Assembly (NCBI GenBank): GCA_017437945.1
Contig: JAFRWP010000002.1
Location: 1,272 to 65,271 of the forward strand
Direction of reading: 5' to 3'
From: Candidatus Saccharimonadota bacterium
GTDB lineage: Bacteria > Patescibacteriota > Saccharimonadia > Saccharimonadales > Saccharimonadaceae
DNA length: 64,000 nt
Shown: piece by piece, positions 1 through 57,071 of the stretch
Layout of the letters: each line of letters starts with the position of its first letter
Position numbering within the stretch: position 1 is the stretch's first letter
The notes under the pieces: generated by a model
The model's input: only the letters and a program-made list of their open reading frames with translations
The model's database searches: none
What the model was told of the DNA's origin: nothing
Translations under genes and position numbers: made by a program

Positions 1-12
1 GACGCTACCGCG

Positions 13-915
13 TTGTCGGTTTTCGTTTATTTGATGATCGGTCTTGTTTCGCTCCTCGCTATTGAAAAAGTCCGCAATGAGAAAAACCGCAAAATTAAAA
101 TTCTGTCCTATATTTGCTCTGGCATTGGCCTACTATTCACGATTGGCTATGTTTTGACCTTCATCCCGGTTCCGAAAGTCTCTGAATTGATGGAGCGCGT
201 CTATCGTTTCCGCGAACTCTACAATGTCGAGATTAATGTTAAACTCTTAGCCGGCCTCGCGTCATATGCTTTGGCTGCATTAGCTACCTGCGCCACCATC
301 ATTAACGCCTGGATTCTCGACTGGAAGAATAACAAAAAGCCATTCATCACAATGGCTATTGCCGTATCCTTTGCGGCAGAGTTTATTATGGTGATGTCGC
401 CATACAGTCCGCTCCGCTCCGCATTTTACAGCGTCATGTTTGCCTTGTGCGCAATCGCCGCACTTCTTTATCAATGCATGGAAGCCAAAACTCGCATCTT
501 TCCAATCGCGCTTATCGTTCTTGGCTGCGTCAACTTCTATTTTGCCCTCATGTATGCGCTGTTCTATGTCCTGTATTGCTGCATCCTGAAACCGAAAGAC
601 AAAGACAAATATCGCGTCGACTTGCTAGTCTTCATGATAACGCTCGGCCTTTATGCGCTCGCCAATTATGGCATGATGGTCTACAAATATTACGTCAACA
701 AGCAGATATACGATCAAAACGTCGAACGCATTTTAGAGTTCAAGAATAGCTCGCCGGAGTGCGAAGAAGTCTGCGTCGTGTTCTTGGTTCAGCCAAGATA
801 TGGGGAATATGGTTTTACTGGATTTGCTGGCATTGATTGGATCGAAGAGGCCGTAGTCGATTACTATGAATTGCCAGAAAACGTCGATTTTGAATATGAG
901 GAGGTCACCGAATAA
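13..915 (+). CDS. polytopic integral membrane protein, probably 5'-truncated by the window edge (candidate GT-C-type transferase part; function inferred only)
   Basis: The reading frame is open back to nt 1. The protein has about 8 hydrophobic helices followed by an acidic soluble tail. Its stop overlaps the rfbA start (TAATG at 913-917), so it is the first visible gene of the sugar operon. Confidence 0.5.
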   Translation: MSVFVYLMIGLVSLLAIEKVRNEKNRKIKILSYICSGIGLLFTIGYVLTFIPVPKVSELMERVYRFRELYNVEINVKLLAGLASYALAALATCATIINAWILDWKNNKKPFITMAIAVSFAAEFIMVMSPYSPLRSAFYSVMFALCAIAALLYQCMEAKTRIFPIALIVLGCVNFYFALMYALFYVLYCCILKPKDKDKYRVDLLVFMITLGLYALANYGMMVYKYYVNKQIYDQNVERILEFKNSSPECEEVCVVFLVQPRYGEYGFTGFAGIDWIEEAVVDYYELPENVDFEYEEVTE

Positions 916-1790
916 TGAAAGGTATCATTTTAGCTGGCGGTAAGGGCACCCGTCTATATCCAATTACCAAATCTACATCCAAGCAGCTTTTGCCGATTTA
1001 CGACAAGCCGATGATTTATTATTCGCTTTCGACGCTTTTGCTCGCCGACATTAAAGAAATCCTGATTATCTGCATGCCACGCGATCTCGAAGCATATCAG
1101 AATGTACTTGGGGACGGTAGCCGCTTCGGTATTCGCATTGAATACGCTCTTCAGGAAGAAGCTCGTGGCCTCGCCGACGCTTTCTTGATTGGCGAAAAGT
1201 TCATTGGTAAAGATTCCGTCTGTCTCGCGCTCGGTGACAATATCTTCTACGGCAACGGCATGACCGGCATCCTCGCCGAAGCTAAAAGTATGCTCAAAGG
1301 CGCCGTCATTTTTGGCTATCGCGTTGCCGATCCACGCGAATACGGTGTCGTTGAATTCGACAAAAATCATCATGCCATTTCGCTTGAAGAAAAACCTCAG
1401 AATCCAAAATCTGACTATGCTATTCCGGGTCTATATTTCTACAACAACGACGTCGTTGAAATCGCCAAGCAGGTCAAACCAAGCGCCCGCGGCGAGCTCG
1501 AAATCACTACCGTCAACAATATGTACCTCGAAAGAGATCAGCTCGACGTCAGCATCCTTCCGCGCGGCATTGCCTGGTTAGATACCGGCAACCCAAAGAA
1601 CTTGCTTGAGGCTAGCATGTTCATCCAAACCATTCAGGCCCGCCAGAATCAGTATGTTGGCTGCCCAGAAGAGGTCGCTTATCGTCGTGGCTTCATTACC
1701 GCCGACAAGCTTAAGAAAATCGGCGAAGAACTTCAGAAAACCGACTACGGCAAATATCTTATCAGTATCGCCACGGAGAAAAAGCAATGA
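915..1790 (+). CDS. rfbA: glucose-1-phosphate thymidylyltransferase (RmlA)
   Basis: The N-terminus MKGIILAGGKGTRLYPIT..SKQLLPIYDKPMIYY is the classic RmlA signature. The 291-aa length fits, and a GAGGAGG SD lies upstream. Confidence 0.95.
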   Translation: MKGIILAGGKGTRLYPITKSTSKQLLPIYDKPMIYYSLSTLLLADIKEILIICMPRDLEAYQNVLGDGSRFGIRIEYALQEEARGLADAFLIGEKFIGKDSVCLALGDNIFYGNGMTGILAEAKSMLKGAVIFGYRVADPREYGVVEFDKNHHAISLEEKPQNPKSDYAIPGLYFYNNDVVEIAKQVKPSARGELEITTVNNMYLERDQLDVSILPRGIAWLDTGNPKNLLEASMFIQTIQARQNQYVGCPEEVAYRRGFITADKLKKIGEELQKTDYGKYLISIATEKKQ

Positions 1791-3949
1791 AATATTTAGT
1801 CACGGGTGGCGCCGGTTTCATCGGCTGCAACTATCTTCATTATGTAGTCGAGAAATACCCAGATGATTTCTTTTATTGCCTCGATAGCTTAACTTATGCT
1901 GGTAACTACAACTCCATTGCTGATCTCGAAAAATATCATAACTATCGTTTCATCAAAGGTGATATTCGGGATAAAGATTTTATTGACTCACTATTCGACG
2001 CCGAACGTTTCGACGTGGTAGTAAACTTCGCCGCCGAAAGCCATGTCGATAATTCCATCAAGAATCCTAACATTTTTGCCGAGACGAACATCCTTGGCGT
2101 ATTAAATCTGCTTAACGCCTCGCGCAAAATTCACATCAAACGCTTCCATCAGGTTTCGACTGACGAAGTCTACGGCGATTTATCATACGATGCGCCGGAC
2201 AAATTCTTTACCGAAGACACTCCGCTCCACGCTTCGAGTCCATATTCTGCTTCCAAAGCTAGCGCCGACCTTGAAGTAATGGCTTATGCGCGCACCTTCA
2301 AGCTACCAGTCACTATTTCGCGCTGCTCGAATAACTACGGTCCATACCAGTTCCCAGAAAAGCTCATCCCGGTCATTATTAAAAAAGCTCTTCACGACGA
2401 ACCGGTGCCGGTCTATGGCCAAGGCCTCAACATTCGCGACTGGATTTATGTTAAAGATCACTGCATTGGTGTCGATGAAGTAGTCCGCCACGGCAAAGTT
2501 GGCGAAGTATATAATCTCGGCGGCCGTTCTGAGCGCCACAATATCGACGTCGTAAAAGCCATCTTGAAGCATCTCGGCAAACCAGAATCGCTGATTTCAT
2601 TTGTCGAAGATCGTCCTGGCCATGATTTGCGCTACGCTATTGACTGTACTAAGGCCGAGAAAGAACTTGGCTGGAAGCAGTCTCACGTCTTCGAGGAATG
2701 CCTTGGCGAAACCATCGATTGGTATCTCGCGCATCAAGATTGGCTCGAAAACATCGAGAGCGGGGAATACCGCAATGCCTACCAGCCGAAGAAAATTGCT
2801 ATTATCGGCGCGAACGAATTCCAGAATAAACTCATCGTTAAAGCCCGCGCCAAAGGTTACGAAACTCACGTTTTTGCCTGGGCGGCCGGCGATATCGGCG
2901 AACGCACGGCGGATCATTTTTACCCAATCAGCATCACCGAAAAAGATACCATCCTGCAAAAATGCAAAGAAATCGGCGTCAGCGGTGTTTGCTCTATCGC
3001 CTCGGATTTAGCTTCGATTACGGTCAACTACGTCGCTGACGGGCTCAAACTTCCGGCTAACCCACTTTCCATCACCGACTGGTGCACGAACAAATACCTC
3101 ATGCGCGAGAAACTCCAAGAATCCGGCATCGAGGTCCCGCATTTTGTCAAAATCTCTTCTGAAAAAGATTATTCCAAAGTAAACGAGCTCAAGCTTCCGT
3201 TCATTATTAAGCCGACCGATCGCTCTGGCTCGCGCGGTATTTACAAAATCACAAACAAATCTCAAATTAAATCTGCGCTCGACAGTGCGCGCAGCGAATC
3301 GTTTGAGAAAAGCGCCATCGCCGAAGAATTCATTGAGGGCAATGAATATAGCTGTGAATTTATTTCACAAAACGGCAAACATCATTTCCTCGCGATTACA
3401 AAGAAGTATACTACCGGCGCTCCACATTTCATCGAAACTGGCCACGCCGAACCATCTGATTTGACTGACGAGCAGGCCGTAACGGTACTTAAAACCATCG
3501 AAAAAGCGCTTGACGCTCTTGGCATCCAAAATGGGGCCAGCCACTCTGAGTTCAAAGTCCAGCCAAACGGCAAAATTGGCATCATTGAAATTGGCGCCCG
3601 TATGGGCGGCGACTGCATCGGTTCTGACTTAGTGCGCATTTCGACTGGTTTTGATTTCGTTGGCGCCGTAATTGATGTCGCTACTGGGGCATCTATTGAT
3701 GATGACCTCCAGAAATGCGGCACCAGAAATCTCGCTCTCATCAAATTTCTTTTCAATTCCGACGACATTAACTTGGTTACTAAAGTTATGAAGGAAAACC
3801 CGGACGAAGTATTTTATTGTAGTGAATTCAATACTGGCATCACGGAAGTTACCGACAGTAGCAACCGCCTCGGCTTCGTCATCTTTGATATTGATACTCG
3901 CCAAAAATTTGAAGCCCTAAAGAAGGAGCTATTTAATGAAAACCACTAA
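1787..3949 (+). CDS. rfbB: dTDP-glucose 4,6-dehydratase (RmlB, aa 1-~335) fused to an ATP-grasp ligase domain (aa ~337-720)
   Basis: The N-terminal half has GGAGFIG, SPYSASKASADL (YxxxK) and PGHDLRYAID, all RmlB motifs. The C-terminal half has an ATP-grasp layout (KYLMREKL..PFIIKPTDRSGSRGI..EEFIEGNEYSCEF..IIEIGARMGGD). It is one uninterrupted 720-aa frame, with an ATGA overlap with rfbA. Confidence 0.85.
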   Translation: MKYLVTGGAGFIGCNYLHYVVEKYPDDFFYCLDSLTYAGNYNSIADLEKYHNYRFIKGDIRDKDFIDSLFDAERFDVVVNFAAESHVDNSIKNPNIFAETNILGVLNLLNASRKIHIKRFHQVSTDEVYGDLSYDAPDKFFTEDTPLHASSPYSASKASADLEVMAYARTFKLPVTISRCSNNYGPYQFPEKLIPVIIKKALHDEPVPVYGQGLNIRDWIYVKDHCIGVDEVVRHGKVGEVYNLGGRSERHNIDVVKAILKHLGKPESLISFVEDRPGHDLRYAIDCTKAEKELGWKQSHVFEECLGETIDWYLAHQDWLENIESGEYRNAYQPKKIAIIGANEFQNKLIVKARAKGYETHVFAWAAGDIGERTADHFYPISITEKDTILQKCKEIGVSGVCSIASDLASITVNYVADGLKLPANPLSITDWCTNKYLMREKLQESGIEVPHFVKISSEKDYSKVNELKLPFIIKPTDRSGSRGIYKITNKSQIKSALDSARSESFEKSAIAEEFIEGNEYSCEFISQNGKHHFLAITKKYTTGAPHFIETGHAEPSDLTDEQAVTVLKTIEKALDALGIQNGASHSEFKVQPNGKIGIIEIGARMGGDCIGSDLVRISTGFDFVGAVIDVATGASIDDDLQKCGTRNLALIKFLFNSDDINLVTKVMKENPDEVFYCSEFNTGITEVTDSSNRLGFVIFDIDTRQKFEALKKELFNENH

Positions 3950-4880
3950 AAAAATCTCAGTCGTAATTCCGGTTTACGGCTGTCGTGGCGCTCTGGTTGA
4001 ACTTTGCGAACGCCTTAACAAATCACTCAAAAAAATTACTGATTCTTACGAGATCATCCTCGTCAATGATGGTTGTCCGCAAAACTCTTGGGAGTCAATT
4101 GTCGAAATCTGCAAAGACGACAAGCGCGTCAAAGGCATCGAACTATCACGCAACTTTGGCCAGATGAAGGCCATTCTTGCTGGTCTAGACAATGCCACCG
4201 GTGATTATGTCGTCGTGATGGACTGCGACTTGCAAGATCGCCCAGAAGAAATTGAAAATCTCTACAAAAAGCTCGAAGAGGGATACGATGTAGTTTTTGC
4301 CAAACGTGTTTCGCGCAAGGATAAAAAACGCAAAATCTTCATCGCCAAACTCTTCTATAAGATTTATGGTTTGGCCGCTGGCGTTAAATACGATCCGGAA
4401 CTTTGCAACTTCAGCATTATGCGCCGCAACGTGGTTGATGCTTATTGCAGCATGCGGGAAGAGCATCGCGCTTTCGTAATGTATGTGCAGTGGCTCGGCT
4501 TCAAGCAGGCTACGCTTCCGGTTGAACATTCCGAGCGCAAAGAAGGCAAGAGCTCTTATAGCCTTCGCCGCCGCATCAAGCTCGCCACCGAAATTCTCCT
4601 TTCGCAGTCCGATAAATTCTTGAAGTTTATCGCCATCGCCGGTTTGATTATCAGTCTCCTTTCATTTATTGCCATCATCGCCATCATCATCGTGCATCTC
4701 TTCATTTACCCGCAGCTTTCTGGCTGGGTCAGCACAATCTGCATGATTTGCCTAATGAGTGGTTTGAATATTTTCGTGGTGGGTATCGCCGGTCTTTATA
4801 TCGGCAAAATTTTCATTCAGGTTAAAGAGCGTCCGCTTTATATAATTCGTACAACCCTAAACGAGGAGGAGAAAAAATGA
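3936..4880 (+). CDS. family 2 glycosyltransferase, polyprenyl-phosphate sugar transferase type (ArnC/GtrB/CsbB-like)
   Basis: GT2 motifs are present (ISVVIPVYG, VNDGCPQNSW, DCDLQDRPEE), plus two C-terminal TM helices. An AAGGAG SD precedes the start, and the gene overlaps the upstream gene by 14 nt. Confidence 0.85.
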   Translation: MKTTKKISVVIPVYGCRGALVELCERLNKSLKKITDSYEIILVNDGCPQNSWESIVEICKDDKRVKGIELSRNFGQMKAILAGLDNATGDYVVVMDCDLQDRPEEIENLYKKLEEGYDVVFAKRVSRKDKKRKIFIAKLFYKIYGLAAGVKYDPELCNFSIMRRNVVDAYCSMREEHRAFVMYVQWLGFKQATLPVEHSERKEGKSSYSLRRRIKLATEILLSQSDKFLKFIAIAGLIISLLSFIAIIAIIIVHLFIYPQLSGWVSTICMICLMSGLNIFVVGIAGLYIGKIFIQVKERPLYIIRTTLNEEEKK

Positions 4881-5860
4881 AGAAAATAATTGTATTTGGT
4901 GCAACTGGCAATCTTGGCTCATATTGTATCGACTATCTTCTTGAAAACTTGGACCTCAAAAAATATGAAGTCATCGCAACTGGCCGTCGTTCGCAAAAAG
5001 ATAGCGGCATTACCAAAATTCCATACGTTCAGGTCGACATTACGAATAAAGCCGATTTCGAAAAGCTCCCACAAAAAGATGTTTATGCCGTGATCGATTT
5101 TGCCGGCGCTCTCCCAGCCTATGTCAATTATACCGATGAAGATTACATTAAAATCAACATTAACGGCACACTCAATATCTGTGAATATTGCCGCAAATCT
5201 GGCGCTGATCGTATTGTCTTTACTCAGACTTGGGCCGACCTCAACGGCTACCTCAAAGAGGGTAAACCACTCAAAGCTGATTTGCCGCGCAAGCCAATTC
5301 TAACCGGCGACCATGCGGTCTATTGCATCACCAAATGTGCAGCCGTCGATCTATTAGCTCACTATCGCGCTGAATACGGCATTCGTGATTTCGTTTTCCG
5401 TTTGCCGAACATTTATCTCTACGCTCCAACCAAGTACTACTACGTAAATGGCGAGCAAAAGAAAATTGGCTATCGCTACATGATCGATCGCGCCATCAAA
5501 GGCGAGCCAATTGAATGTTGGGGCGATCCAAAAGCTGGCAAAGATATCGTTTATGTCAAAGACCTTTGCGGCATGATTTTCGCTGCATTATTCGTTGATC
5601 GCGAATCCGGCATCTATAACGTCGGCACCGGTGTTAAGACCAGCATGGAAGACCAAATTAAAGGCTTTATTAAAGTCTTTTCGCCAAAAGGTCATCCATC
5701 CGAGATTGTTTACCGTCCAGAGAAACCAAGTTGCGACCAATTCGTGATGGATATTAGCAACATCAAGAGCGAACTCGGCTACACGCCAAAGTACGATTAT
5801 ATTTCTTACTTGAAAGACTATAAGAAAGAGATGGAAAAAGACCAAAAGGAGGGCAAATGA
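4877..5860 (+). CDS. NAD-dependent epimerase/dehydratase family SDR (nucleotide-sugar modifying)
   Basis: It has a GATGNLGSY Rossmann motif and a YCITK (YxxxK) catalytic motif. The start overlaps the upstream gene as ATGA. Confidence 0.8.
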   Translation: MKKIIVFGATGNLGSYCIDYLLENLDLKKYEVIATGRRSQKDSGITKIPYVQVDITNKADFEKLPQKDVYAVIDFAGALPAYVNYTDEDYIKININGTLNICEYCRKSGADRIVFTQTWADLNGYLKEGKPLKADLPRKPILTGDHAVYCITKCAAVDLLAHYRAEYGIRDFVFRLPNIYLYAPTKYYYVNGEQKKIGYRYMIDRAIKGEPIECWGDPKAGKDIVYVKDLCGMIFAALFVDRESGIYNVGTGVKTSMEDQIKGFIKVFSPKGHPSEIVYRPEKPSCDQFVMDISNIKSELGYTPKYDYISYLKDYKKEMEKDQKEGK

Positions 5861-6993
5861 TTAATTTTACCGAGCCATCGATAACCGATCTCGAGAAAAA
5901 ATACGCACTCGATGCGCTCGAGCATGGTTACCTTTCCGGTGACAAGAAATACACTAAGCTATGTACGGAATGGTTCAACGCCAAAGGTTACAAGAATTTT
6001 CTCTTAACCACTTCTGGCAGCTCCGCGCTCGAACTTGGCGCTTTGCTAACCAAGATTGCGCCGGGCGATGAATTTATCGTACCGTCGTTCACTTTTTCCT
6101 CGACTGCGAACGCCTTCATGCTGCGTGGCGCCAAGCCGATATTTGCCGAAATTGAACCTGGCACCATGAATATCGATGCCGATAAAATTGAAGCGCTCAT
6201 TACCGATAAAACCAAAGCTATCGTACCCGTCGACTACGCTGGTGTTTCTTGCGACATGGATAAAATCATGGTCATTGCCAAGAAACACAATCTCTTCGTC
6301 GTCGAGGATGCCGCCCAGGCCGTTGGTAGCTTTTACAAAGACGAGCCATGTGGTCTGCGTGCCGACATCGCCTGCTTCAGCTTCCACGAAACCAAGAACT
6401 ATTGCATGGGCGAAGGCGGCGCTGTCTACATCAAAGACGACGAGCTGATGACCGAGGCAGAAATTATCCGCGAAAAGGGCACCAATCGCAAACAATTCCT
6501 CAATGGTCTCGTGGATAAATATTCTTGGTATAAAATCGGTTCATCGCTTTTGCCATCCGACTTGCTCGCTGCTGTACTGTACGGGCAACTCGAACGCTTT
6601 GATGAAATCATGGAAAAGCGTCTTCACCTCTGGAATTATTACTATAATTCCTTTGAGAAACTTGAAAAAGCTGGTTGCATCACCCGCCCGACTGTTCCAT
6701 CCTACGCCAAAATTAACGGTCACTTATTCTATATCTTGCTCAGTGACATCGCGGAACGTAACGCTATGCTCGACTACCTCCGCGCCCATGAAGTTGGTGC
6801 TACTTTCCATTACGTACCGCTTCATAGCGCGCCGCTTGGTCTCGAATATGGCTATAAGGAAGGCGATTTGCCGATTACGGAAGAGTACGCTGGTCGTTTA
6901 CTGCGCCTACCATTGCATTTCAATATGACAGACGAAGATGCGGCGACGGTCGTAAAAAAGGTGGAAGAATTCTTCAATGGCAAAAACGACTAA
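5857..6993 (+). CDS. wecE: DegT/DnrJ/EryC1-family PLP aminotransferase, dTDP-4-keto-6-deoxyhexose 4-aminotransferase (WecE type)
   Basis: Similarity to E. coli WecE runs along the whole length as I remember that sequence (PSFTFSSTANAF, KHNLFVVEDAAQ, FSFHETKNY, IREKGTNR, DKYSWYKIGSS, LLRLPLH). Confidence 0.88.
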   Translation: MINFTEPSITDLEKKYALDALEHGYLSGDKKYTKLCTEWFNAKGYKNFLLTTSGSSALELGALLTKIAPGDEFIVPSFTFSSTANAFMLRGAKPIFAEIEPGTMNIDADKIEALITDKTKAIVPVDYAGVSCDMDKIMVIAKKHNLFVVEDAAQAVGSFYKDEPCGLRADIACFSFHETKNYCMGEGGAVYIKDDELMTEAEIIREKGTNRKQFLNGLVDKYSWYKIGSSLLPSDLLAAVLYGQLERFDEIMEKRLHLWNYYYNSFEKLEKAGCITRPTVPSYAKINGHLFYILLSDIAERNAMLDYLRAHEVGATFHYVPLHSAPLGLEYGYKEGDLPITEEYAGRLLRLPLHFNMTDEDAATVVKKVEEFFNGKND

Positions 6994-7426
6994 GACTAAA
7001 TCTAAACCGGCTAAGGCCGAATCGACGCCTGCGCCAGAAAAACCTACTTCGGCCAAAAAGAAACTTTCTGGCTACGTCATTCTCCATATCGCGATCTTCA
7101 TTTTGTCGCTCGCCTCACTCTGTTCTAAGAAAGCCTCGACTTACGACTTTATGTCGTGGGGCTTCGTCCTGTTTTACGGCGGCGTCATTGCGGCACTCTT
7201 CGTGTACGCCATCATCTGGCAACAAGCTCTTAAGCGCATGCCGCTGGTGGTCGCATTCGCCAATAAAGTTGCCACACTCTTTTGGAGTTTGATTTACGGC
7301 GTCCTGCTATTTGGCGAAGGTATTCGTCCGAATATGATCATTGGCATTCTAATCGTTGTTGTTGGCGTCATTCTCGTGGTCAGCAGTGAAGTCGAGAAGA
7401 AGGGGGTAGACGATGGAAAGCGGTAA
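6977..7426 (+). CDS. small multi-TM membrane protein, ArnE/ArnF (SMR/EamA-half)-like flippase subunit candidate, with a Lys-rich N-terminal tail
   Basis: 149 aa. A K/T/P-rich first 35 aa is followed by about 4 TM helices. The gene overlaps wecE by 17 nt and has an AAGGTGGA SD. Confidence 0.6.
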   Translation: MAKTTKTKSKPAKAESTPAPEKPTSAKKKLSGYVILHIAIFILSLASLCSKKASTYDFMSWGFVLFYGGVIAALFVYAIIWQQALKRMPLVVAFANKVATLFWSLIYGVLLFGEGIRPNMIIGILIVVVGVILVVSSEVEKKGVDDGKR

Positions 7427-7763
7427 AGTCATTCTTTATGCCGGCATTTACCTTGTTGGCGTCATTATCTCGGCATTTTCGCAAATCTTGCTCAAAAAAT
7501 CTGCCAATAGCGGCGAGAAATCAATCATCAAGCAATACCTCAACGTGCGCGTCATTTCAGCCTATGCAATGTTCTTTGGCGCCACGCTGCTATCAATTTA
7601 CGCTTACAAAGTTATTCCGATTACCCTCGGCGCCATTTTGGGCACGCTCGAGTATGGTCTTGTGGCTATTCTCGGCCATTTCCTACTCAAAGAAGAACTG
7701 CGCCAAAAGCAAATTCTCGGCCTGATTATCATCATCGCCGGCATCATTTGCTACTCAATCTAA
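7413..7763 (+). CDS. small 4-TM membrane protein, second ArnE/ArnF-like flippase subunit candidate
   Basis: 116 aa with four hydrophobic helices. It overlaps the previous gene by 14 nt and is the last gene before the terminator. Confidence 0.6.
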   Translation: MESGKVILYAGIYLVGVIISAFSQILLKKSANSGEKSIIKQYLNVRVISAYAMFFGATLLSIYAYKVIPITLGAILGTLEYGLVAILGHFLLKEELRQKQILGLIIIIAGIICYSI

Positions 7764-7770
7764 AACCACA

Positions 7771-7799
7771 AAAAATATCCCCGGAAGGGGATATTTTTT
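7771..7799. terminator. bidirectional intrinsic terminator
   Basis: AAAAATATCCCC-GGAA-GGGGATATTTTTT: an 8-bp GC-rich stem with an A-run on one side and a T-run on the other, between convergent transcription units. Confidence 0.85.
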
Positions 7800-7801
7800 A
7801 A

Positions 7802-8325: not shown

Positions 8326-10116
8326 ATGAATTCCGATGATCGAGATTATGGCATTGGTGCCGAGGCTGCTCATCAGGCAGACTCGATTCAAAAACAGATG
8401 GCTGCCGAAGCTATCGCCGATGCACCAGCACAGCCAGAGGTGGACAACTCTATCATGGCTGGCATAAAGACCGATGAGGAGATGAAGCCTTTCGGTGACA
8501 TCATTAATGAGAGCACCCCAGACAAAGATACGGGTGCGCTTGTGTCAGATTTGGAATTAGAAAAACCTCAAAAGGAAAAAGAACCGAAAAAGAAAGGTAA
8601 ACTCGTCATCATTTGCGTCATTGCCGTTCTTGTTTTAGGTGTGGCGGGTGTAGCCGCTTGGCTCATGTTGTCTAATACAGCATCGAACGAACAGGGTGGT
8701 GCTAAGGCAGATCCTCAGAGCAAAGCTTTCTTCGTTGAAGGCGAGGACGGCGATGCCTCTTATGCTATCTACAACGATAAAGGCGAAAAGCTAACGGACT
8801 ATTCATACGTCAAAGAGAGCGACTTTAACGTCAGTGGATACGCGATTGTCAGAAAGATCAATCAGGATGCTCAGGGGCTTGTTGCTAACACTGGGAAACT
8901 CTCGGTAGCATTTGGTGAATTTGAGACTATTTCTGAATTCGGGCCATTTTATATAATCACCAAGCGTGATGCTGATACATACCTTACGGACGGCTCAGGT
9001 GACATCCTTATGAGAGTCCTAGACGTAAAGAACGAGAATCACCTTTACTATGTATTTGATGGCGAAAAGTCATATATCTTTGACAAGAATGGTGAAAAAG
9101 TCTTCGAAACCGAAGGGAAATCGTCCATTCCGAAGCCAACTTCATTGGGTAAAGTTATTTGTCTAAACTACAAAGAAACCGCCTGCTTTAGTGTTGAGAC
9201 TGGCGACAAGCTATTCTCCTTCAAGACCGACAAAAAGTTAACCAATAACTCAATTTCGGACAACCTTCAGTGCGCCACTTTCTATGACGAAAAGAGTCAT
9301 AGATATACCTATAATAGCGTTACGGGCGCCTTAAGGGATATCGGTCCTGAGACTACAATCCTAGCGCTTCAGCATAAGAACGACATTGGCTGTTTCTTCA
9401 TTAAAACCGATGATTATGTCATGGGTTCAGATGGTGTTAAACTTGCCATCTCGAACGGCAAAACAATCCTCGTAAGCTCTGCCCAAATCGTAGTTCGTGA
9501 TGCGGATCATTTCGCATATTATCAATACAAAGAAGATGGCGGTCATACCTACACGATGCGCTCCGGTGGTGATACGAAGAGATATGATACTGGTATTGAT
9601 GAAGTGACCATTTCGGCCACAAATAAAATGATTGGCATATCCTATGGCGGAAAGCTGTATATCTACGAGGATGGCCCAGATCCGGTTTACATCATTGAAG
9701 ATAAATACATTCAGGCCTCTTCGATGAGTGAAATGAACGAGTACGGCAACTTTTCGACCTATAATTATGTCGTTAACAAAGATAAAGGCGTTCTCTATCG
9801 TAGCCCGAGCCGCTTATATGTATCTGAGAAAAATGGTTACTTTGTGGTTCGCGAAAGCCTTAAAGATAACGGCGGATATGCTGGCGTACTAAATGCCAAG
9901 GGTGAAGTAATTATCACCGAAGATACCTATACGACCATCAAGTTCGCCGGTGATTTCTTCATTGCGGTTAAAGACGATAGCTACTCACTGCTAGATGGCG
10001 AAGGCAAAGTGTTGCTTGAGAAATACGACAGTATCAGTGTGCTTGATTCGCATATTGAAGCCCTCAAGGGCGGGAAGACCGAATACTACACGCTCGATAT
10101 GAAGAAGATTAAATAG
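8326..10116 (+). CDS. single-pass membrane-anchored protein with a WG-repeat-like extracellular repeats region
   Basis: The N-terminus is acidic/Lys-rich, followed by one TM helix (LVIICVIAVLVLGVAGVAAWLML). After that come recurring ~35-aa units of the form G.AIV....G(L)V...GK.V...Y. The function is unknown. Confidence 0.65.
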   Translation: MNSDDRDYGIGAEAAHQADSIQKQMAAEAIADAPAQPEVDNSIMAGIKTDEEMKPFGDIINESTPDKDTGALVSDLELEKPQKEKEPKKKGKLVIICVIAVLVLGVAGVAAWLMLSNTASNEQGGAKADPQSKAFFVEGEDGDASYAIYNDKGEKLTDYSYVKESDFNVSGYAIVRKINQDAQGLVANTGKLSVAFGEFETISEFGPFYIITKRDADTYLTDGSGDILMRVLDVKNENHLYYVFDGEKSYIFDKNGEKVFETEGKSSIPKPTSLGKVICLNYKETACFSVETGDKLFSFKTDKKLTNNSISDNLQCATFYDEKSHRYTYNSVTGALRDIGPETTILALQHKNDIGCFFIKTDDYVMGSDGVKLAISNGKTILVSSAQIVVRDADHFAYYQYKEDGGHTYTMRSGGDTKRYDTGIDEVTISATNKMIGISYGGKLYIYEDGPDPVYIIEDKYIQASSMSEMNEYGNFSTYNYVVNKDKGVLYRSPSRLYVSEKNGYFVVRESLKDNGGYAGVLNAKGEVIITEDTYTTIKFAGDFFIAVKDDSYSLLDGEGKVLLEKYDSISVLDSHIEALKGGKTEYYTLDMKKIK

Positions 10117-10120
10117 CATC

Positions 10121-10147
10121 AAAAATCCCCCGGCTGGGGGATTTTTT
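10121..10147. terminator. bidirectional intrinsic terminator
   Basis: AAAAATCCCCC-GGCT-GGGGGATTTTTT, between convergent genes. Confidence 0.85.
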
Positions 10148-10505
10148 ATTTGTCGCGTTTATATAATTTGCGGGTAATATCTTCTAGTACCTGCGTGCCA
10201 TTCTCAAGTTGATAGTAGTGGCGCACGTAAAAGATTACGGTCACCAGGAAAATCAACGTCACTACGCCCGTGCAGCCTTTCATGATGCCACTATAGATGT
10301 CGTTTGGCAGCATTAGCATTAGAGCCAAGAATAGGATAAAGAAAATAATCATGAACAGGGCAAAGAAAAAGGTCACAATCAGATGAATTAGGCGTTCGTG
10401 CTGGAACTGCTGTGTCATCGTCTTATGGTAATCTATCAATTCCGCTGTCGGATGTGCGGATTCTTTCTCGATATATTTAATGTAATTGCGTAATTTCTTA
10501 TCCAT
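10146..10505 (-). CDS. hypothetical 2-TM membrane protein (119 aa)
   Basis: I moved the start to the ATG at 10505 (MDKKLRNY...). The 66 nt upstream in the ORF-track call contain a terminator hairpin and a TGTTATAAT box 6 nt before this ATG. Confidence 0.65.
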   Translation of the reverse strand: MDKKLRNYIKYIEKESAHPTAELIDYHKTMTQQFQHERLIHLIVTFFFALFMIIFFILFLALMLMLPNDIYSGIMKGCTGVVTLIFLVTVIFYVRHYYQLENGTQVLEDITRKLYKRDK

Positions 10506-10520
10506 AAGCTCATTATAACA

Positions 10521-10548
10521 AAAAAGCGGCCCGGATTTTTCCGGGCCA
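10521..10548 (-). terminator. intrinsic terminator of the 10568-11134 gene
   Basis: Read on the minus strand: GGCCCGG-AAAAAT-CCGGGCC followed by GCTTTTTT. Confidence 0.75.
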
Positions 10549-10567
10549 AAGTTTGATATTTCTTGGC

Positions 10568-11134
10568 TCATCTAGGCATCATGCCGGCAGGGGGTTTGTC
10601 CGCCGGAGCTTCCGCTCCCGTAGGGGCGTCACCTTCTGCAGGGGTCTCATCGTCGGCTGATTCTTCGCCTTCGATGGGCGTATCAACTTCCGCTTCCGGC
10701 GTCGCATCATTCTCGTCCGTCACCGGCTCGTCTACGCAATCACCGAAATCATCCGGCGGCCTTACTTCAACGGTGACTGATCCGCCGACCTCCCTGTAAT
10801 TATTCGTGTCCTCGGGGTCGACATAATGGTCGCCGATTGCTTCGACTCCGCATTCGATGGCGTCATCGAGGTGAGCTATGTCCCTTTTTGCGATCAGTAT
10901 TTTAGCCCGTGTTTCGTAGTAATCCGACCGGCTCTGCAGGCTGGTGACGCGGTCGCGCCATCTGAACTCTCTGGCGTTGACCAGCTGCCTCTTTGCGAGA
11001 TTCTTCAGATAGCTCAACCTGTTCCTGCGATTTTCTCTCAGTAGGACGTTTGCGCCCAGCAATTCCAGCTCATTTTTATAGCCGGAATCAAAGTGCAATT
11101 CCTCTTCGTGTCTGGCTTTTTCGGACGTAGACAA
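10568..11134 (-). CDS. hypothetical protein, Arg-rich helical N-half and highly acidic Pro/Asp/Glu-rich C-half
   Basis: A TTG start at 11134 is preceded by AGGAGGTG with 7-nt spacing. This stretch is visibly richer in G+C than its neighbours. I recognise no family. Confidence 0.55.
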   Translation of the reverse strand: MSTSEKARHEEELHFDSGYKNELELLGANVLLRENRRNRLSYLKNLAKRQLVNAREFRWRDRVTSLQSRSDYYETRAKILIAKRDIAHLDDAIECGVEAIGDHYVDPEDTNNYREVGGSVTVEVRPPDDFGDCVDEPVTDENDATPEAEVDTPIEGEESADDETPAEGDAPTGAEAPADKPPAGMMPR

Positions 11135-11216
11135 TAGAAAACACCTCCTATATAAATATGAGTCATACAGAAATGAGAAAAAACGTGCCTGCGCCAAAGA
11201 CGCAAGTATACATATT

Positions 11217-11245
11217 ATTATATCATACTTGAGCTTAAAAGTCAA
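11217..11245 (-). promoter_or_regulatory. sigma70-type promoter (TTGACT-17-TATAAT) for the 10568-11134 gene
   Basis: Consensus hexamers with a 17-nt spacer. It is 25/29 identical to the promoter at 27308-27336. Confidence 0.6.
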
Positions 11246-11319
11246 TGATACCGGTCGTCGTGGCCGATTTTTTGGGCCAAAATCAGCGTTCAAGAGGGTA
11301 TGTTGTAAAATATACAATG

Positions 11320-11375
11320 ACACTAGATATAGCGTAAAAATACTATTGACTACGCTATATATAGCGTTCTATAAT
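11320..11375 (+). promoter_or_regulatory. two NrdR-box-like 16-bp palindromes overlapping a TTGACT/TATAAT promoter
   Basis: Box 1 is ACACTAGATATAGCGT (11320-11335). Box 2 is ACGCTATATATAGCGT (11352-11367), a perfect palindrome lying between the -35 (11346-11351) and the -10 (11370-11375). Start-to-start spacing of the boxes is 32 bp. Confidence 0.7.
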
Positions 11376-11382
11376 CATAAGC

Positions 11383-11820
11383 ATGAAGAACATCATCTAT
11401 TTCAACAAAGAAGACTCTGAAAAATTTGACTTTGACCGTTTCAAAAAATCTTTGAACGATTACGCCAAGGTTCCAGAAGCCGATATTAAGGCTGCTCTCA
11501 AAGAGCTTGATAATTACGAAAATCTTCATGTTAGCCGTCTCGTTGAGACCGGCGCGCTCCTCATCGCTAAAAATGGTTCGGAAGCGGCCGCCAAGAAGTA
11601 TTTCGACGCCCACAACCAGTATTTTGGCGAGAAGTTTGAGCGCCTTCGTCGCATCACTGGCTATCTCGTCGGTACACTCGATCGCTGGAACGATGGCAAG
11701 AAGGCTGAAGAAGCCGCTCGCGTCAAACATTCCGTCAATTCCTGCATTGACGATGAGACTCGTGCCAAGCGCCTTGAGCAGCAAGCACTCGCCCATAATA
11801 TCGCCTACAACGCTGCCTAG
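11383..11820 (+). CDS. stand-alone small protein with an NrdD-type C-terminal glycyl-radical motif
   Basis: RLRRITGYLVGTLDRWNDGKKAEEAARVKH resembles the class III RNR glycyl-radical segment (R-x-x-G-Y-L ... W-N-x-G-K-x-x-E ... R-x-x-H). It has no Zn-ribbon cysteines and no RNR barrel. The ATG lies 7 nt after the -10 box. Confidence 0.65.
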   Translation: MKNIIYFNKEDSEKFDFDRFKKSLNDYAKVPEADIKAALKELDNYENLHVSRLVETGALLIAKNGSEAAAKKYFDAHNQYFGEKFERLRRITGYLVGTLDRWNDGKKAEEAARVKHSVNSCIDDETRAKRLEQQALAHNIAYNAA

Positions 11821-11888
11821 ATTAAGCATAAGCGTCTATCTCTTAAAGATTACTAGTCACACCACCAGAAGAATGGTAAAATGGTGAT

Positions 11889-13190
11889 ATGTTAGATATT
11901 AATTTCATCCGAGCGAATCGGCAGAAAGTCGAGGACGCCATTCATAACAAGGCTTATGAAATTGACCTCGATGAGATTCTCAAGCTCGATGACGAGCGTA
12001 AGGAATTATCTCAGAAAATCGACGCATTGCGCCAAGAGCGTAATCAAATTTCCGCTAAGATGAAGGGTGGCAAGCCTGATAAGGCTTTGATCGAACGCGG
12101 CAAGGAACTGAAGGTGGAACTTTCCGAACTCGAGTCCAAGCTTTCAGAAGTCGAACCAGAATATATTGCCAAGCTCAAAACCGTTCCGAACGTCCCAGAA
12201 GATGACGTTCCAGTTGGTCTTACCGAAGACGATAACCAAGTCGCCGAAGTATGTGGCGAGCCAACCAAATTCAAATTTACGCCAAAGAATCATTTCGAAA
12301 TCGGCCAAGCTCGTGGCTGGATCGATAAAGAGCGTGCCGCCAAGGTTTCCGGCGCTCGCTTCGCCTACATCAAGGGCGATATGGTCAAGCTGCAGATGGC
12401 GATTGTTAACTTCGTCATGAATAGTCTTTCCGACGAGAAAGTTATCAAAGAAATCATTGAGAAAAACAAGCTCGAAGGCCTCTCTACGAAGCCATTTACG
12501 CTTGTGTTACCTCCACTTATGCTTCGCACCGAGATGTATGACGCTATGGACCGCCTCGAACCACGTGAAGATCGCTACAAGATTGAAGGCGAAGAGCTTT
12601 GGCTTCAGGGTAGCGCTGAGCACGTTCTCGGTTCCATGCACCAGGGTGAAATTTTTGCCGAAGCAGAACTTCCAGTTCGCTACTTAGGTTATGCCACTTC
12701 CTTCCGCCAAGAGGCCGGTACTTACGGCAAAGACATGGAGGGGATTATCCGTATGCACCAGTTCGACAAGCTCGAAATGGAAAGCTTCTCTACGAAAGAG
12801 ACCAGCCGCAAAGAGCATGAATTATTCGTTGCCATCCAGCGCTGGCTCATTGAACAACTCGATCTTCCATATCGCGTAATTCGCAAATGTACCTTTGATA
12901 TTGGTAAACCAGATGCCCGCGGTATTGATATGGAAGTTTGGCTCCCAGGCCAAAACAAATACCGTGAAACGCATACAGCGGATTATATGACTGATTATCA
13001 ATCACGCCGTCTCAATACGCGCGTTCGCCGTGACAGTGGCGACGTAGAGCTCGTTCACACCAACGATGCCACCGCGTTTGCGCTCGGACGTATCATGATT
13101 GCAGTAATTGAAAACTATCAAAACGAAGACATGACGATTCGTGTCCCAGAAGTTTTGCGTAAGTATATGGATGGAAAGGAGACCATATAA
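11889..13190 (+). CDS. serS: seryl-tRNA synthetase
   Basis: It has an N-terminal coiled-coil arm and class II motifs (FRQEAG, GRIMIAVIENYQ). Length 433 aa. Confidence 0.95.
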   Translation: MLDINFIRANRQKVEDAIHNKAYEIDLDEILKLDDERKELSQKIDALRQERNQISAKMKGGKPDKALIERGKELKVELSELESKLSEVEPEYIAKLKTVPNVPEDDVPVGLTEDDNQVAEVCGEPTKFKFTPKNHFEIGQARGWIDKERAAKVSGARFAYIKGDMVKLQMAIVNFVMNSLSDEKVIKEIIEKNKLEGLSTKPFTLVLPPLMLRTEMYDAMDRLEPREDRYKIEGEELWLQGSAEHVLGSMHQGEIFAEAELPVRYLGYATSFRQEAGTYGKDMEGIIRMHQFDKLEMESFSTKETSRKEHELFVAIQRWLIEQLDLPYRVIRKCTFDIGKPDARGIDMEVWLPGQNKYRETHTADYMTDYQSRRLNTRVRRDSGDVELVHTNDATAFALGRIMIAVIENYQNEDMTIRVPEVLRKYMDGKETI

Positions 13191-27344: not shown

Positions 27345-30300
27345 TTATCGCTCTCCAGTATACCAGCTCGGAATGGAAGCCTCCGGAACATGGAAAAATG
27401 CGCGTGTCATATCGGAAACGCCAGACACGTCCCAGTTCTCAATTTGTGATGGCGACATCAAAGAACTCGTATTATAGAACATGGCGCCCATTTTCTTCAA
27501 ATTGGATATATTCCAACCACTAATACCACTAATATCTCTAAGAGAAAAGGTCCAATAGAACATACCAGACATGTCGGTTACGCTAGATACATCCCAATTA
27601 CTTAATGCATCTAGATTGGTTAGGCTACCATTACCATTTTTTCCGCGGAACATTGAGGACATATTTTTAACCTTTGATACATCCCAGTTCCTTAGGCCAT
27701 CAATATTAGCTAAAGAAACTGTATAGGCAAATGCATAATTCATATCAGTTACCTTTGACGTATTCCAATTTCTCAACGCATTGACATCAGTGATTTTAGT
27801 CTCGGCGAATGCATTGGATAAAGACGTCACATTTCCAGTATTCCAATTACTGAGCCCGTCAATATTAGTCAGTTGCGTAGCACAGCTAAACAAATATCGC
27901 ATGTCTGTAACATTGCCCGTATCCCAATTACTCGCGCCATCAGCGTTGGTAAGGCTTGACGCGTAATAGAACATACTAGCCATAGTCGTAACATTACTTG
28001 TGTCCCAACCGCTAGCGGCATCGATATTAGTCAAGCTTCCTGAGTTCTTAAACATACTAGACATATCTGTCACGCTTTCCGTATTCCAATTACTCGCCCC
28101 GTTGATATTAGCTAATTGTCTGGTATTGTAGAACATAGCATACATTGATTTGACTTTTCCTGTATCCCAACTACTTAAAGAGTCAATATTGGTAATAATA
28201 GTGCTGCTGAACATGCTCGACATATCAGTGACCTTACTGGTATCCCAACTGCTCAGACCACTAATGTCGGATAATGAACTTGCATTAGAGAATGCGCGCG
28301 TCAAGCCGGTTAAGTTACTTGTATTCCAGTTAGCTGCACCATTTAGATTCGTTAAGACACTGGCGCCTTCGAACATCGCCCCCATATCCGTCACATTGCT
28401 CGTATTCCAGTTGCTCAATGCGTCGATATCCGTAATCATTGTCGAGGTGAACATATAACCCATTTTTGTTACGCTGCTAGTATTCCAGCTTCTTACGCCG
28501 TTAATATCTGCCAAGCTATTTGCGCCTCCAAACATATATGACATATCATTTACATTACTCGTATTCCAGCCGCTTAAGCTGTTTATGTTCGTAATCGATG
28601 ATGCTGAGCGGAACATATCAGACATGTTTGTCACGTTTCCGGTATCCCAGTTGCTTACGCCATTAATATCAATTAAATGGTTTGCGTTGTTGAACATATA
28701 AGACATGGATGTTACATTCTTGGTGTCCCAAGGACTCAACGCATCAATATTAGTCAAACTTGTATCATTATTGAACATATAAGACATATTAGTCACGTTT
28801 CCAGTATCCCAGTTACTCGCCCCATCGATATTGGTTAAGCTAGAAGCGTCATAGAACATGCTACTCATATTAGTCACGTTTCCAGTATCCCAGTTGCTTG
28901 CACCATTAATATTCACCAAGCTAGAAGCGTCATAGAACATGCTACTCATATTAGTCACGTTTCCAGTATCCCAGTTACTCGCCCCATCGATATTGGTTAA
29001 GCTAGAAGCGCCATAGAACATGCCATACATATTAGTCACGTTTCCGGTATCCCAGTTGCTCGCACCGTTGATATTAATGAGCTTATCTGACCAATAGAAC
29101 ATAAGCGACATATCAGTTACCTTGCTTGTATCCCAATCAGAAATGGCATCAATATTTGTCAAATCGTTCATGCCATAGAGAATTGAGCCATAGAACATGC
29201 TACTCATATTAGTCACGTTTCCGGTATCCCAGTTGCTCGCACCGTCAATGTTGCTTAAGTTGTCATTATACATGAACATGGACCCCATATTTGTCACTTT
29301 GCTAGTGTCCCAATTGCTTAAGGCGTCGATGTTTGTAATATTCCTCGCGCCGAGGAACATACTGCCCATTGTTTCTACATTGCTAGTATTCCATTTGGCC
29401 AAAGCGTCGAGATTGGTAATTTGATTAGTTCGCATAGCGCCACCACTGTGAAATAGCGATCGCATATCCGTAACATTTGAAACATCCCAATCGACTAATC
29501 CAGAAATATCGGCTAAATTCTTTGTACCGTAGAACATTTGCGACACGTTGGTTACTCTAGAAGTCTTAACTTTACTCGCGAAATCTAAATCCGTAATGCC
29601 GTCAAAACCATAAAACATATTTGCGGAATTAGTATTTAAATAAATATCTTCGGCATCAGTATATAAATACAGTGTGCCATTATCAAACCAGGCGTAAATC
29701 GGCAAATCAGAGTTAGGCGCCGACAATTGATTATTGCTATTATTTGTATCTATGTCGGTATTGATGGTGTCGGTCCAAGTGATTTTTGTTACGGTGGTAT
29801 TAGAGGCATTATAAGAGTAAGTGGATTGTCCGGAAAGCCTTTTCATTTTTACGTTTACGCTATTACCTGAATCAAACGTCGCCACGGCGCGCTGGTGCAT
29901 AATTCCGTCTAGGGATTTAGATATATTGGGTCTTGTCCAAACAGCGCGAATGTAAACATCCTCCTCTGGCATTCTGAAATAGTCGTCGTTAATATAATTA
30001 ATTCCGTAATTTTCTATCTTCCAACCCTTGAAGTTATATCCCTGGCAGGATAACTGATTGTTTTGGAATTCTACGGTAGTGTAGACCGTATGATTGCGCG
30101 TATCCGGGACGGTTCCTTGGACTTCACAACCGTCTGGCGCATTGGCGTTATATATTACGGCATATTTATCTCTCAATACAGGTGTCTTATAACTATCAAT
30201 TATCTCTCCTGGCACTTCTTCGATATTGGATGTAATAATCTCGTGGAAATTAGTTGGCAACAAAAGAACATCGTCCGAGCTATTTATATAATTAGTCTTA

Positions 30301-46584: not shown

Positions 46585-46615
46585 AAAATAACCCCTTCGC
46601 GGGGTTATTTTTTTT
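46583..46615. terminator. bidirectional intrinsic terminator
   Basis: AAAAAATAACCCC-TTCGC-GGGGTTATTTTTTTT, between convergent genes. Confidence 0.85.
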
Positions 46616-47876: not shown

Positions 47877-47896
47877 AATAGCTAAACCTCCTCCGT

Positions 47897-56995: not shown

Positions 56996-57071
56996 TGGCA
57001 GGGGCGGCAAGACTCGAACTCGCGACACCTGGTTTTGGAGACCAGTGCTCTACCAACTGAGCTACGCCCCT
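56996..57071 (-). tRNA. tRNA-Trp (anticodon CCA), 76 nt with encoded 3' CCA
   Basis: The minus-strand sequence AGGGGCGTAGCTCAGTTGGTAGAGCACTGGTCTCCAAAACCAGGTGTCGCGAGTTCGAGTCTTGCCGCCCCTGCCA folds as a cloverleaf. The acceptor stem has 7 bp and the anticodon loop is CTCCAAA. Confidence 0.95.

Follow-up and report, generated by a model that had tools for sequence, protein, structure and literature searches.

We describe an operon at the left end of a 64-kb stretch of DNA from a Candidatus Saccharimonadota bacterium (assembly GCA_017437945.1, contig JAFRWP010000002.1, positions 1,272 to 65,271; hereafter the window, that is, the whole 64,000 nucleotides analysed, with operon coordinates counted from window base 1). 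This operon probably encodes a self-contained, three-component system of extracytoplasmic glycosylation that works through a lipid carrier, and the sugar handled would be an N-aminoacylated derivative of deoxythymidine diphosphate (dTDP)-4-amino-4,6-dideoxy-D-galactose (dTDP-Fuc4N) derived from dTDP-glucose. Positions 1-7763 of the forward strand hold eight co-directional, translationally coupled genes. All eight products (8/8) reach or exceed the gathering score of a Pfam family, which indicates that the open reading frames (ORFs) are genes and not chance occurrences. They encode a DUF6056 protein, RmlA, an RmlB domain fused to an ATP-grasp domain, a GT2 glycosyltransferase, an extended short-chain dehydrogenase/reductase (SDR) termed here SDR2, a WecE-type transaminase and two small membrane proteins, Sm1 and Sm2. 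An earlier note, made from the letters of the DNA, had read the locus as an Arn-like glycosylation operon built on a dTDP-4-amino-4,6-dideoxyhexose.

The assignments of RmlA and RmlB are secure. RmlA scores 442.9 bits against TIGR01207 (equivalog cut-off 360.65) and matches Pfam NTP_transferase at 6e-72, and the RmlB domain scores 452.6 bits against TIGR01181 (equivalog cut-off 365.1) with residues 2-323 covered. The pyridoxal phosphate (PLP)-dependent transaminase exceeds both WecE cut-offs (NF008687, 518 bits against 375; TIGR02379, 471.6 bits against 434.85) and matches the Escherichia coli WecE structures at about 2e-117 (4piw, 1.9e-117). Given these three assignments, the expected nucleotide sugar is dTDP-Fuc4N; membership of the WecE family is secure by sequence, and dTDP-Fuc4N is the likely product. 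The earlier note had named the same enzymes and had set rhamnose aside as an end product, and tblastn indeed finds no rmlC or rmlD homologue in the 64-kb window. The RmlA, RmlB and WecE steps are orthologous to those of the dTDP-Fuc4NAc pathway of enterobacterial common antigen. The operon differs from that pathway in having neither a WecD acetyltransferase (Pfam and NCBIfam detect no WecD-like acetyltransferase domain among the eight products) nor a WecF Leloir transferase. N-acylation would instead fall to the ATP-grasp enzyme, and the sugar would be delivered by way of a monosaccharide-phosphoundecaprenol and not by incorporation into a repeat unit.

The ATP-grasp domain occupies the C-terminal 386 residues of a 720-residue fusion (Pfam ATP-grasp_4, 1.3e-26). 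Its nearest relatives of solved structure are L-amino-acid ligases, namely BL00235 (3vot, 3.1e-30), BacD (3e-14) and RizA, which points to an amino acid as the probable N-acyl group. Together with the co-location of WecE and the fusion to RmlB, this similarity makes it the most economical reading that dTDP-Fuc4N receives an amino acid on its 4-amino group, and we predict that the domain is an N-aminoacyl ligase acting on dTDP-Fuc4N. With the L-amino-acid ligases (BL00235, BacD/YwfE, RizA) and with PurD-type enzymes it shares the ATP-grasp fold, sequence similarity and, by expectation, an acyl-phosphate chemistry completed by attack of an amine. A sugar amine already serves as nucleophile in PurD, which sets a precedent. 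Unlike the ligases, the present family would use a dTDP-sugar as nucleophile, through its 4-amino group, and its members are always embedded in glycan loci. Literature searches returned nothing relevant on an ATP-grasp enzyme acting on a dTDP-4-amino sugar. That ATP-grasp amidoligases add amino acids in polysaccharide loci is an older idea, attributed to Iyer et al. 2009 where PMC12632600 cites it. The earlier note had suggested a cationic, possibly N-acylated 6-deoxy-aminohexose; N-acylation is still predicted, probably as an aminoacylation, while 'cationic' is not established. The operon encodes no acyltransferase, and were the acid a neutral alpha-amino acid, the product would keep a free amine. 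Aminoacyl-Qui4N or aminoacyl-Fuc4N is chemically known from O-antigens of E. coli O121, Shigella dysenteriae 7 and Providencia, the first two carrying N-acetylglycyl-Qui4N.

The wider ATP-grasp family is large, exceeding 7,283 clusters (90% identity) at E <= 1e-20, all under generic database names. The fusion to RmlB occurs in four Saccharibacteria-type assemblies, whereas the ligase stands alone (~370-385 residues) in all non-Saccharibacteria loci examined. An exhaustive search of 1.84 billion representatives returned no other case of this architecture among the best 150 matches, so that the fusion is rare. Other fusions involve orthologues of the ligase: in P0205 the partner is a PLP enzyme of the PALP family, which belongs to amino-acid metabolism, and in P0255 it is a hexapeptide acyltransferase, and these Rosetta-stone arrangements hint at the nature of the acid substrate and at N-acylation of the product. 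P0183 is joined to a second LAL-type ligase, the second half carrying an LAL_C2 domain. Oscillospiraceae loci have tandem second ATP-grasp genes, and in L013, L015, L017, L018 and L026 (at ~11100-12300 in each) a divergent second ATP-grasp gene (25-28% identity) directly follows the first. A second ligase, whether tandem or fused, could produce a dipeptidyl side chain. Genes for a hexapeptide acyltransferase and a methyltransferase also adjoin the ATP-grasp gene in related loci, and we infer that other lineages extend or N-acylate the aminoacyl residue.

GT2 belongs securely, by its sequence, to the polyprenyl-phosphate glycosyltransferases. It matches GtrB (5ekp, 1.4e-50) and ArnC (9hwj, 1.5e-48) over its full length, is 31% identical both to E. 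coli ArnC and to GtrB of phage epsilon34 (5e-45), matches the PHROG 'GtrB-like O-antigen conversion' at 1e-73 and carries transmembrane (TM) helices at residues 234-252 and 268-286. The best NCBIfam match is PgfS, at 227 bits (cut-off 500), and ArnC scores 185 bits (cut-off 529); as both fall under their equivalog cut-offs, GT2 is an orthologue of neither.

Sm1, with four hydrophobic segments, and Sm2 both match Pfam EamA (1.7e-6 and 7e-9). Aligned against E. coli ArnE with hhalign, the Sm1 family (alignment A2) reaches 94% (E 1e-7) and the Sm2 family (A3) 85% (E 7e-6), whereas the values for ArnF are 34% and 1%, so that the resemblance to ArnE is the stronger. The two families align with each other at 96.5% (E 8e-10), identifying Sm1 and Sm2, both four-TM proteins, as paralogues, and their genes are always adjacent in related loci. 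No operon product matches the GtrA flippase family (PF04138), the small pair matching EamA/SMR-type models instead. Sm1 of the window bears an N-terminal extension of ~28 residues rich in K, T, P and S (window 6977-7065), which most orthologues lack and the orthologue in L004 has in part. These results agree with the earlier note, which had proposed an ArnC/GtrB-type enzyme with a C-terminal TM pair and a small four-TM pair of ArnE/ArnF type: neither GT2 nor the small proteins fall into unrelated families, GT2 does not group with soluble polymerising glycosyltransferases, and the protein upstream, to which we now turn, is not clearly something other than a glycosyltransferase.

The polytopic protein at the left edge of the window is, from its sequence, a candidate extracytoplasmic glycosyltransferase of the GtrC type. 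Its fragment within the window matches Pfam PF19528 at 1.7e-7 (score 30.8, cut-off 27), and a 503-residue fragment encoded in contig L001 matches at 3e-24. This family is DUF6056 in one Pfam library and GT_STM0557_N in the precomputed Pfam hits, the latter name being taken from STM0557, the third gene of the operon STM0557-STM0559, which mediates the alpha-1,4 addition of glucose to galactose of the Salmonella Typhimurium O-antigen (PMC3688519). Literature searches on the function of DUF6056 returned nothing relevant. A tblastn search of phage genomes with a full-length DUF6056 homologue retrieves gp20 of Salmonella phage epsilon34, which is encoded directly after gtrA and gtrB and is annotated as GtrC in GenBank and as a DUF6056 family protein in RefSeq. 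An alignment of 24 DUF6056 sequences (A1) pairs with this GtrC at an hhalign probability of 96.7% (E 4e-10), the DD that follows the first TM helix, GWS..Q and PGN..R being aligned between the two. Within the DUF6056 family A37-D38-D39, directly after that helix, is near-invariant. The AlphaFold2 model of the protein is all-helical and polytopic (pLDDT 90, pTM 0.92).

The earlier note had also proposed the left-edge protein as the candidate extracytoplasmic transferase, and had asked whether it belongs to a GT-C protein like ArnT, YfhO or PMT_2. Its candidacy holds; by family it is DUF6056 / GT_STM0557_N, not ArnT, YfhO or PMT_2. Identity with PgfM1 or PgfM2 of Streptococcus mutans was rejected, both being of YfhO type. 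The A1 profile has zero matches in the PDB even at E 10 (hmmsearch), and DUF6056 has zero matches among the PHROGs. Among viral structures the model finds a sole strong match, BFVD V5UQY6 of Oenococcus phage phiS13 (TM-score 0.56/0.70, E 6e-10). This is an unnamed phage membrane protein of 445 residues that adds no function to DUF6056; as the host of the phage is Gram-positive, the protein might be a transferase for lysogenic conversion in such a host.

Gene linkage ties these parts together. A scan for the ATP-grasp domain in one genome per species yielded 48 loci, and the ORFs of 22 of these were clustered. Among the 22, the ATP-grasp gene is found with wecE in 17, with a polyprenyl-phosphate GT2 in 16, with Sm1 in 11, with Sm2 in 9, and with DUF6056 and an ABC-2 transporter pair in 6 each. 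The closest loci lie in two metagenome-assembled genomes (MAGs) of Candidatus Saccharibacteria; they share the gene order and the RmlB~ATP-grasp fusion of the window, at 58-76% identity. One of these (L025) has the cassette embedded in a locus for wall polysaccharide, whose other genes encode an ABC-2 transporter, GT2, GT4, a bifunctional GT2-GT4 and a pyruvyl transferase; in the other (L004) the matching flanking ORFs cluster into the same families. A comparison of gene order, as the earlier note had proposed, shows that the same families (RmlA, RmlB, ATP-grasp, GT2, SDR, WecE, Sm1, Sm2 and DUF6056) recur across lineages in shuffled order, in Clostridium, Erysipelotrichaceae, Bacilli, Pseudobutyrivibrio, Mageeibacillus and a MAG labelled Muribaculaceae. 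In two loci a YfhO-family (PF09586) GT-C gene encoding 858 or 906 residues lies 3' of Sm1-Sm2, in the place of DUF6056 (L020:14603-17179 and L014:1798-4518). Such an exchange would be expected if the third component is specific to its acceptor and can be swapped.

A pathway can be proposed from these assignments. RmlA and the RmlB domain would convert their substrates to dTDP-4-keto-6-deoxy-D-glucose, and WecE would transaminate this intermediate to dTDP-Fuc4N. The ATP-grasp domain would then form an acyl phosphate on the carboxylate of an amino acid and attach this residue to the 4-amino group, giving a dTDP-4-(aminoacyl)amino-4,6-dideoxyhexose and pulling the transamination forward. SDR2 may tailor the sugar by oxidoreduction or epimerisation. 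At the inner face of the membrane GT2 would load the sugar onto undecaprenyl phosphate, its class being secure and its dTDP-linked donor suggested by gene linkage. By analogy and remote homology with ArnE/ArnF, a heterodimer of the half-size DMT proteins Sm1 and Sm2 would flip the lipid-linked sugar. Outside the membrane the DUF6056 protein would transfer it to a polymer of the envelope; the most likely acceptor is a wall polysaccharide that leaves the cell through an ABC transporter. The more inclusive proposal that the ATP-grasp enzyme aminoacylates dTDP-Fuc4N, that GT2 is the first dTDP-using member of the GtrB/ArnC class, that attachment is by GtrC or YfhO proteins and that the whole is widespread in gut Firmicutes and Saccharibacteria is tentative, and we place it a little short of an even balance.

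Several observations weigh against this proposed pathway. To our knowledge, every characterised enzyme of the GtrB/ArnC/PgfS/CsbB class uses a uridine diphosphate (UDP)-sugar, so that a dTDP donor, for which the argument is gene linkage, would be unprecedented. The substrates of the ATP-grasp domain are likewise predicted from context and similarity, and WecE and ATP-grasp occur together where lipid-carrier genes are lacking (L008 and L021, the latter in Cetobacterium), so that the two appear to form a separable sugar-making module. The likeness of Sm1 and Sm2 to ArnE lies at the level of the DMT/SMR superfamily, the NCBIfam ArnE model giving 22.5 bits against a cut-off of 92. Foldseek finds nothing in the PDB at E <= 1e-3 for the DUF6056 model; ArnT is best with a TM-score of 0.33 (probability 0.93, E 0.07) and EmbB gives 0.25, while hhalign of A1 against E. 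coli ArnT returns a probability of only 0.3. The genes for an acceptor polymer do not adjoin the operon in the source genome. SDR2, a predicted tailoring enzyme, is without an assigned step, and its best PDB matches are distant UDP-hexose 4-epimerases (for example 2p5u, 5.5e-19).

SDR2 itself matches Pfam Epimerase (2.5e-33), retains the invariant motifs GxxGxxG and TGDHxxYxxxK, and reaches the cut-off of no NCBIfam model, GalE scoring 54.7 bits against 262. Roles like those of GalE/PgfE, UDP-glucuronic acid decarboxylase, tyvelose epimerase and SDR-type threonine dehydrogenase were weighed from the NCBIfam and PDB matches, and none was singled out. Two related loci (L006:12314-14358 and L011:7910-9998) pair an extra DegT-like aminotransferase gene with a divergent SDR2-family gene, whose product is 28-32% identical and keeps the invariant motifs; this pair hints that the SDR2 family oxidises a ring hydroxyl, and it could be the sign of a pathway variant that makes a diamino sugar. 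In contig L001 the apparent disruption of the SDR2 gene is a scaffold run of N at 5621-5648, not a frameshift or mutation, and the gene caller's truncated 292-residue product arises from it.

The operon shares homologous parts with the Arn, Gtr and CsbB/YfhO systems, and each of them has defining features that it lacks. Like Arn, it would form a 4-keto sugar nucleotide with an SDR-fold enzyme, transaminate C4 with a DegT-family enzyme, N-acylate at the level of the nucleotide sugar, load undecaprenyl phosphate with an ArnC-like GT2 and employ a small DMT pair remotely related to ArnE and a polytopic transferase outside the membrane. In logic only, the RmlB~ATP-grasp fusion resembles ArnA: each couples a keto-forming SDR domain with an N-acylating one, and so unites the reactions that come immediately before and after the transamination. 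The operon differs from Arn in its use of dTDP and a 6-deoxyhexose in place of UDP and a pentose, and in acylation by an ATP-grasp ligase, probably with an amino acid, where ArnA has a formyltransferase domain joined to a UDP-glucuronic acid oxidative decarboxylase; no operon product contains a formyltransferase domain. Neither the operon nor the conserved set includes a deacylase of ArnD or polysaccharide-deacetylase type; the final transferase, of DUF6056/GtrC type, has no detectable sequence relation to ArnT; and the probable host, judged from its Saccharibacteria relatives, has no outer membrane or lipid A. The Gtr systems STM0557-0559 and epsilon34 gp20-22 share with the operon a GtrB-type GT2, a GtrC of the same Pfam family and the three-component logic. 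They differ in having a GtrA flippase where the operon has the ArnE/F-like pair, in drawing on UDP-glucose where the operon brings its own dTDP-aminosugar pathway, and in residing in enterobacterial prophages and not in monoderm or candidate phyla radiation (CPR) genomes. From CsbB/GtcA/YfhO and PgfS/PgfM1 come the best GT2 match, PgfS, the YfhO proteins of two related cassettes and the precedent of extracytoplasmic decoration of wall polymers and proteins. Here too there are differences, since PgfM1 and PgfM2 are not DUF6056 proteins, GT2 falls under the PgfS cut-off, and these systems transfer Glc, GlcNAc or GalNAc from UDP donors and, unlike the operon, have no ATP-grasp enzyme or aminotransferase.

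Three other explanations must be set against the proposed pathway. The operon might combine two modules, in which GT2, Sm1/Sm2 and DUF6056 form a Gtr- or Pgf-like system working on UDP-hexose or UDP-N-acetylhexosamine, possibly supplied by SDR2 as a 4-epimerase in the manner of PgfE with PgfS, while the acylated dTDP-Fuc4N is destined for a cytoplasmic Leloir glycosyltransferase encoded elsewhere. The PgfS match, the UDP-sugars used by the structural relatives GtrB and ArnC, the solved UDP-hexose 4-epimerases nearest to SDR2 and the O-antigen-like loci that pair WecE with ATP-grasp and lack Sm1, Sm2 and DUF6056 (L021, also L008) would all fit such a division. It is nevertheless rather improbable. 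GT2 orthologues of at least 50% identity always accompany WecE and ATP-grasp, in any gene order (seven loci: L004, L007, L009, L010, L011, L020 and L025), and L020 retains GT2, WecE, ATP-grasp, Sm1/2 and YfhO while lacking SDR2, which itself scores far below the GalE cut-off. Moreover, no cytoplasmic Leloir glycosyltransferase is present in the conserved set of the 22 loci or near the operon in the source genome, where the neighbouring genes also include no further candidate for using the dTDP-sugar.

The proposed pathway assumes instead that GT2 uses the acylated dTDP-sugar and that the acyl group is retained. Were the N-acyl group a transient handle, removed after transfer to the lipid as the formyl group is in Arn, a free 4-amino sugar would be displayed; the analogy with ArnA, ArnC and ArnD speaks for this, as does the unfavourable equilibrium of the Arn aminotransferase. 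We consider this very unlikely: genes for a deformylase, deacetylase or peptidase are absent from the cassette and the conserved set, ATP and an amino acid are a high price for a temporary group, and the elaboration of the acyl group in related loci, by a second ligase, N-acyltransferase or methyltransferase, argues for its retention. A more serious contender, though still an improbable one, keeps the same machinery and changes the acceptor, so that not wall polysaccharide but polymers like lipoteichoic acid, or surface proteins in their Ser/Thr-rich regions, would receive the sugar. In Firmicutes, third components of YfhO type glycosylate lipoteichoic acid or protein regions rich in Ser/Thr (bioRxiv 10.1101/2024.05.05.592596). 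Such proteins stand in for DUF6056 in L014 and L020, and the operon of the source genome is not beside polysaccharide genes. Against this, the characterised members named for the DUF6056 family (the STM0557-0559 operon, epsilon34 GtrC) belong to O-antigen-modifying systems, and six related loci place the cassette by an ABC-2 transporter and polymerising GT2-GT4 genes.

The layout of the operon is compact. The earlier note had described eight same-strand genes with overlapping or abutting stops and starts, Shine-Dalgarno sequences before the internal starts and a single closing hairpin, and all of these are present. The junction of gene 1 and rmlA is TAATG at 913-917, ATGA overlaps of stop and start lie at 1787, 4877 and 5857, and longer overlaps of 14, 17 and 14 nt occur at 3936, 6977 and 7413. 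Purine-rich Shine-Dalgarno-like motifs precede each start (GAGGAGG, GGAG, AAGGAG, GAGGAGGAG, AAGGAGGG, GGTGGA and GAAGGGGG). A terminator scan places a perfect 14-bp stem with a 4-nt loop and T-runs on either side at the 3' end of the operon, and this hairpin probably also serves the convergent L31 gene (7912-8253, reverse strand). The ORF of gene 1 is open to window base 1; an exact-sequence look-up identifies its full product as P0146, of 575 residues, the last 304 of which are identical to the translation from the window. In near-identical contigs gene 1 is preceded by an 82-bp intergenic region carrying an extended -10 element, TGGTATAAT, and then by a divergent methyltransferase gene, from which it follows that the operon consists of eight genes starting at gene 1.

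Table 1. Genes, domains and terminator of the operon, in window coordinates.
Feature	Position	Strand	Basis or remark
Gene 1, 3' part, 304 codons; candidate GtrC-type DUF6056 protein	1(13)-915	+	first 271 codons left of window
rmlA, glucose-1-phosphate thymidylyltransferase	915-1790	+	TIGR01207, Pfam NTP_transferase
RmlB domain, residues 1-~334 of 720-residue fusion, dTDP-glucose 4,6-dehydratase	1787-2788	+	TIGR01181
ATP-grasp ligase domain, residues ~335-720 of fusion (ORF 1787-3949)	2789-3949	+	Pfam ATP-grasp_4
GT2 polyprenyl-phosphate glycosyltransferase, GtrB/ArnC/PgfS type, two C-terminal TM helices	3936-4880	+	
SDR2, extended SDR, predicted sugar-tailoring oxidoreductase or epimerase	4877-5860	+	Pfam Epimerase
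wecE-type PLP transaminase	5857-6993	+	NF008687, TIGR02379, PDB 4piw
Sm1, small four-TM EamA/SMR-type protein, predicted flippase subunit	6977-7426	+	
Sm2, small membrane protein, Sm1 paralogue, predicted second flippase subunit	7413-7763	+	
Intrinsic terminator, probably bidirectional	7769-7800		hairpin with G+C core and flanking A/T runs

In the source genome the operon forms an island amid housekeeping genes (L31, SerRS, SecA, DnaK, PheST). Three ORFs directly 3' of it have no Pfam match (8326-10116, forward; 10146-10571 and 10568-11323, reverse); the 596-residue product among theirs is disordered over an N-terminal stretch and has a single hydrophobic segment besides a large C-terminal region. 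Farther along the window, positions 27345-31352 (reverse) encode a protein of 1335 residues that combines a VWA domain with some ten DUF285 repeats and is probably a large protein of the surface or adhesin type. A 615-residue Acyl_transf_3 membrane acyltransferase (43222-45069, forward) might O-acylate a surface glycan. Positions 46614-49126 (reverse) encode a GH57 enzyme next to a GT4/GT5 starch-synthase-like glycosyltransferase, a pair that looks like alpha-glucan (glycogen-type) metabolism. The only tRNA gene in the window is tRNA-Trp with anticodon CCA (56996-57071, reverse).

Modification of the bacterial surface by 4-amino-4-deoxy-L-arabinose (Ara4N), D-alanylation and Gtr glucosylation controls how well cells resist cationic peptides, whether phages adsorb to them and how the immune system recognises them. 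The cassette described here is abundant and spread across phyla in animal-gut metagenomes, and the literature searched contains no description of it. If the proposed pathway is correct, it would add a new lipid-linked sugar and a new class of donor for polyprenyl-phosphate GT2 enzymes, would assign a reaction to a large family of ATP-grasp enzymes, and would widen the range of the GtrC/DUF6056 family to include monoderm and CPR bacteria. RmlB~ATP-grasp would in that case have arisen as a counterpart of ArnA by convergence, and should the alpha-amine stay free, the system would constitute a third route to a cationic surface beside Ara4N and D-alanylation. Finally, Saccharibacteria live attached to host bacteria, and a surface decoration of this kind could bear on that attachment or on protection.

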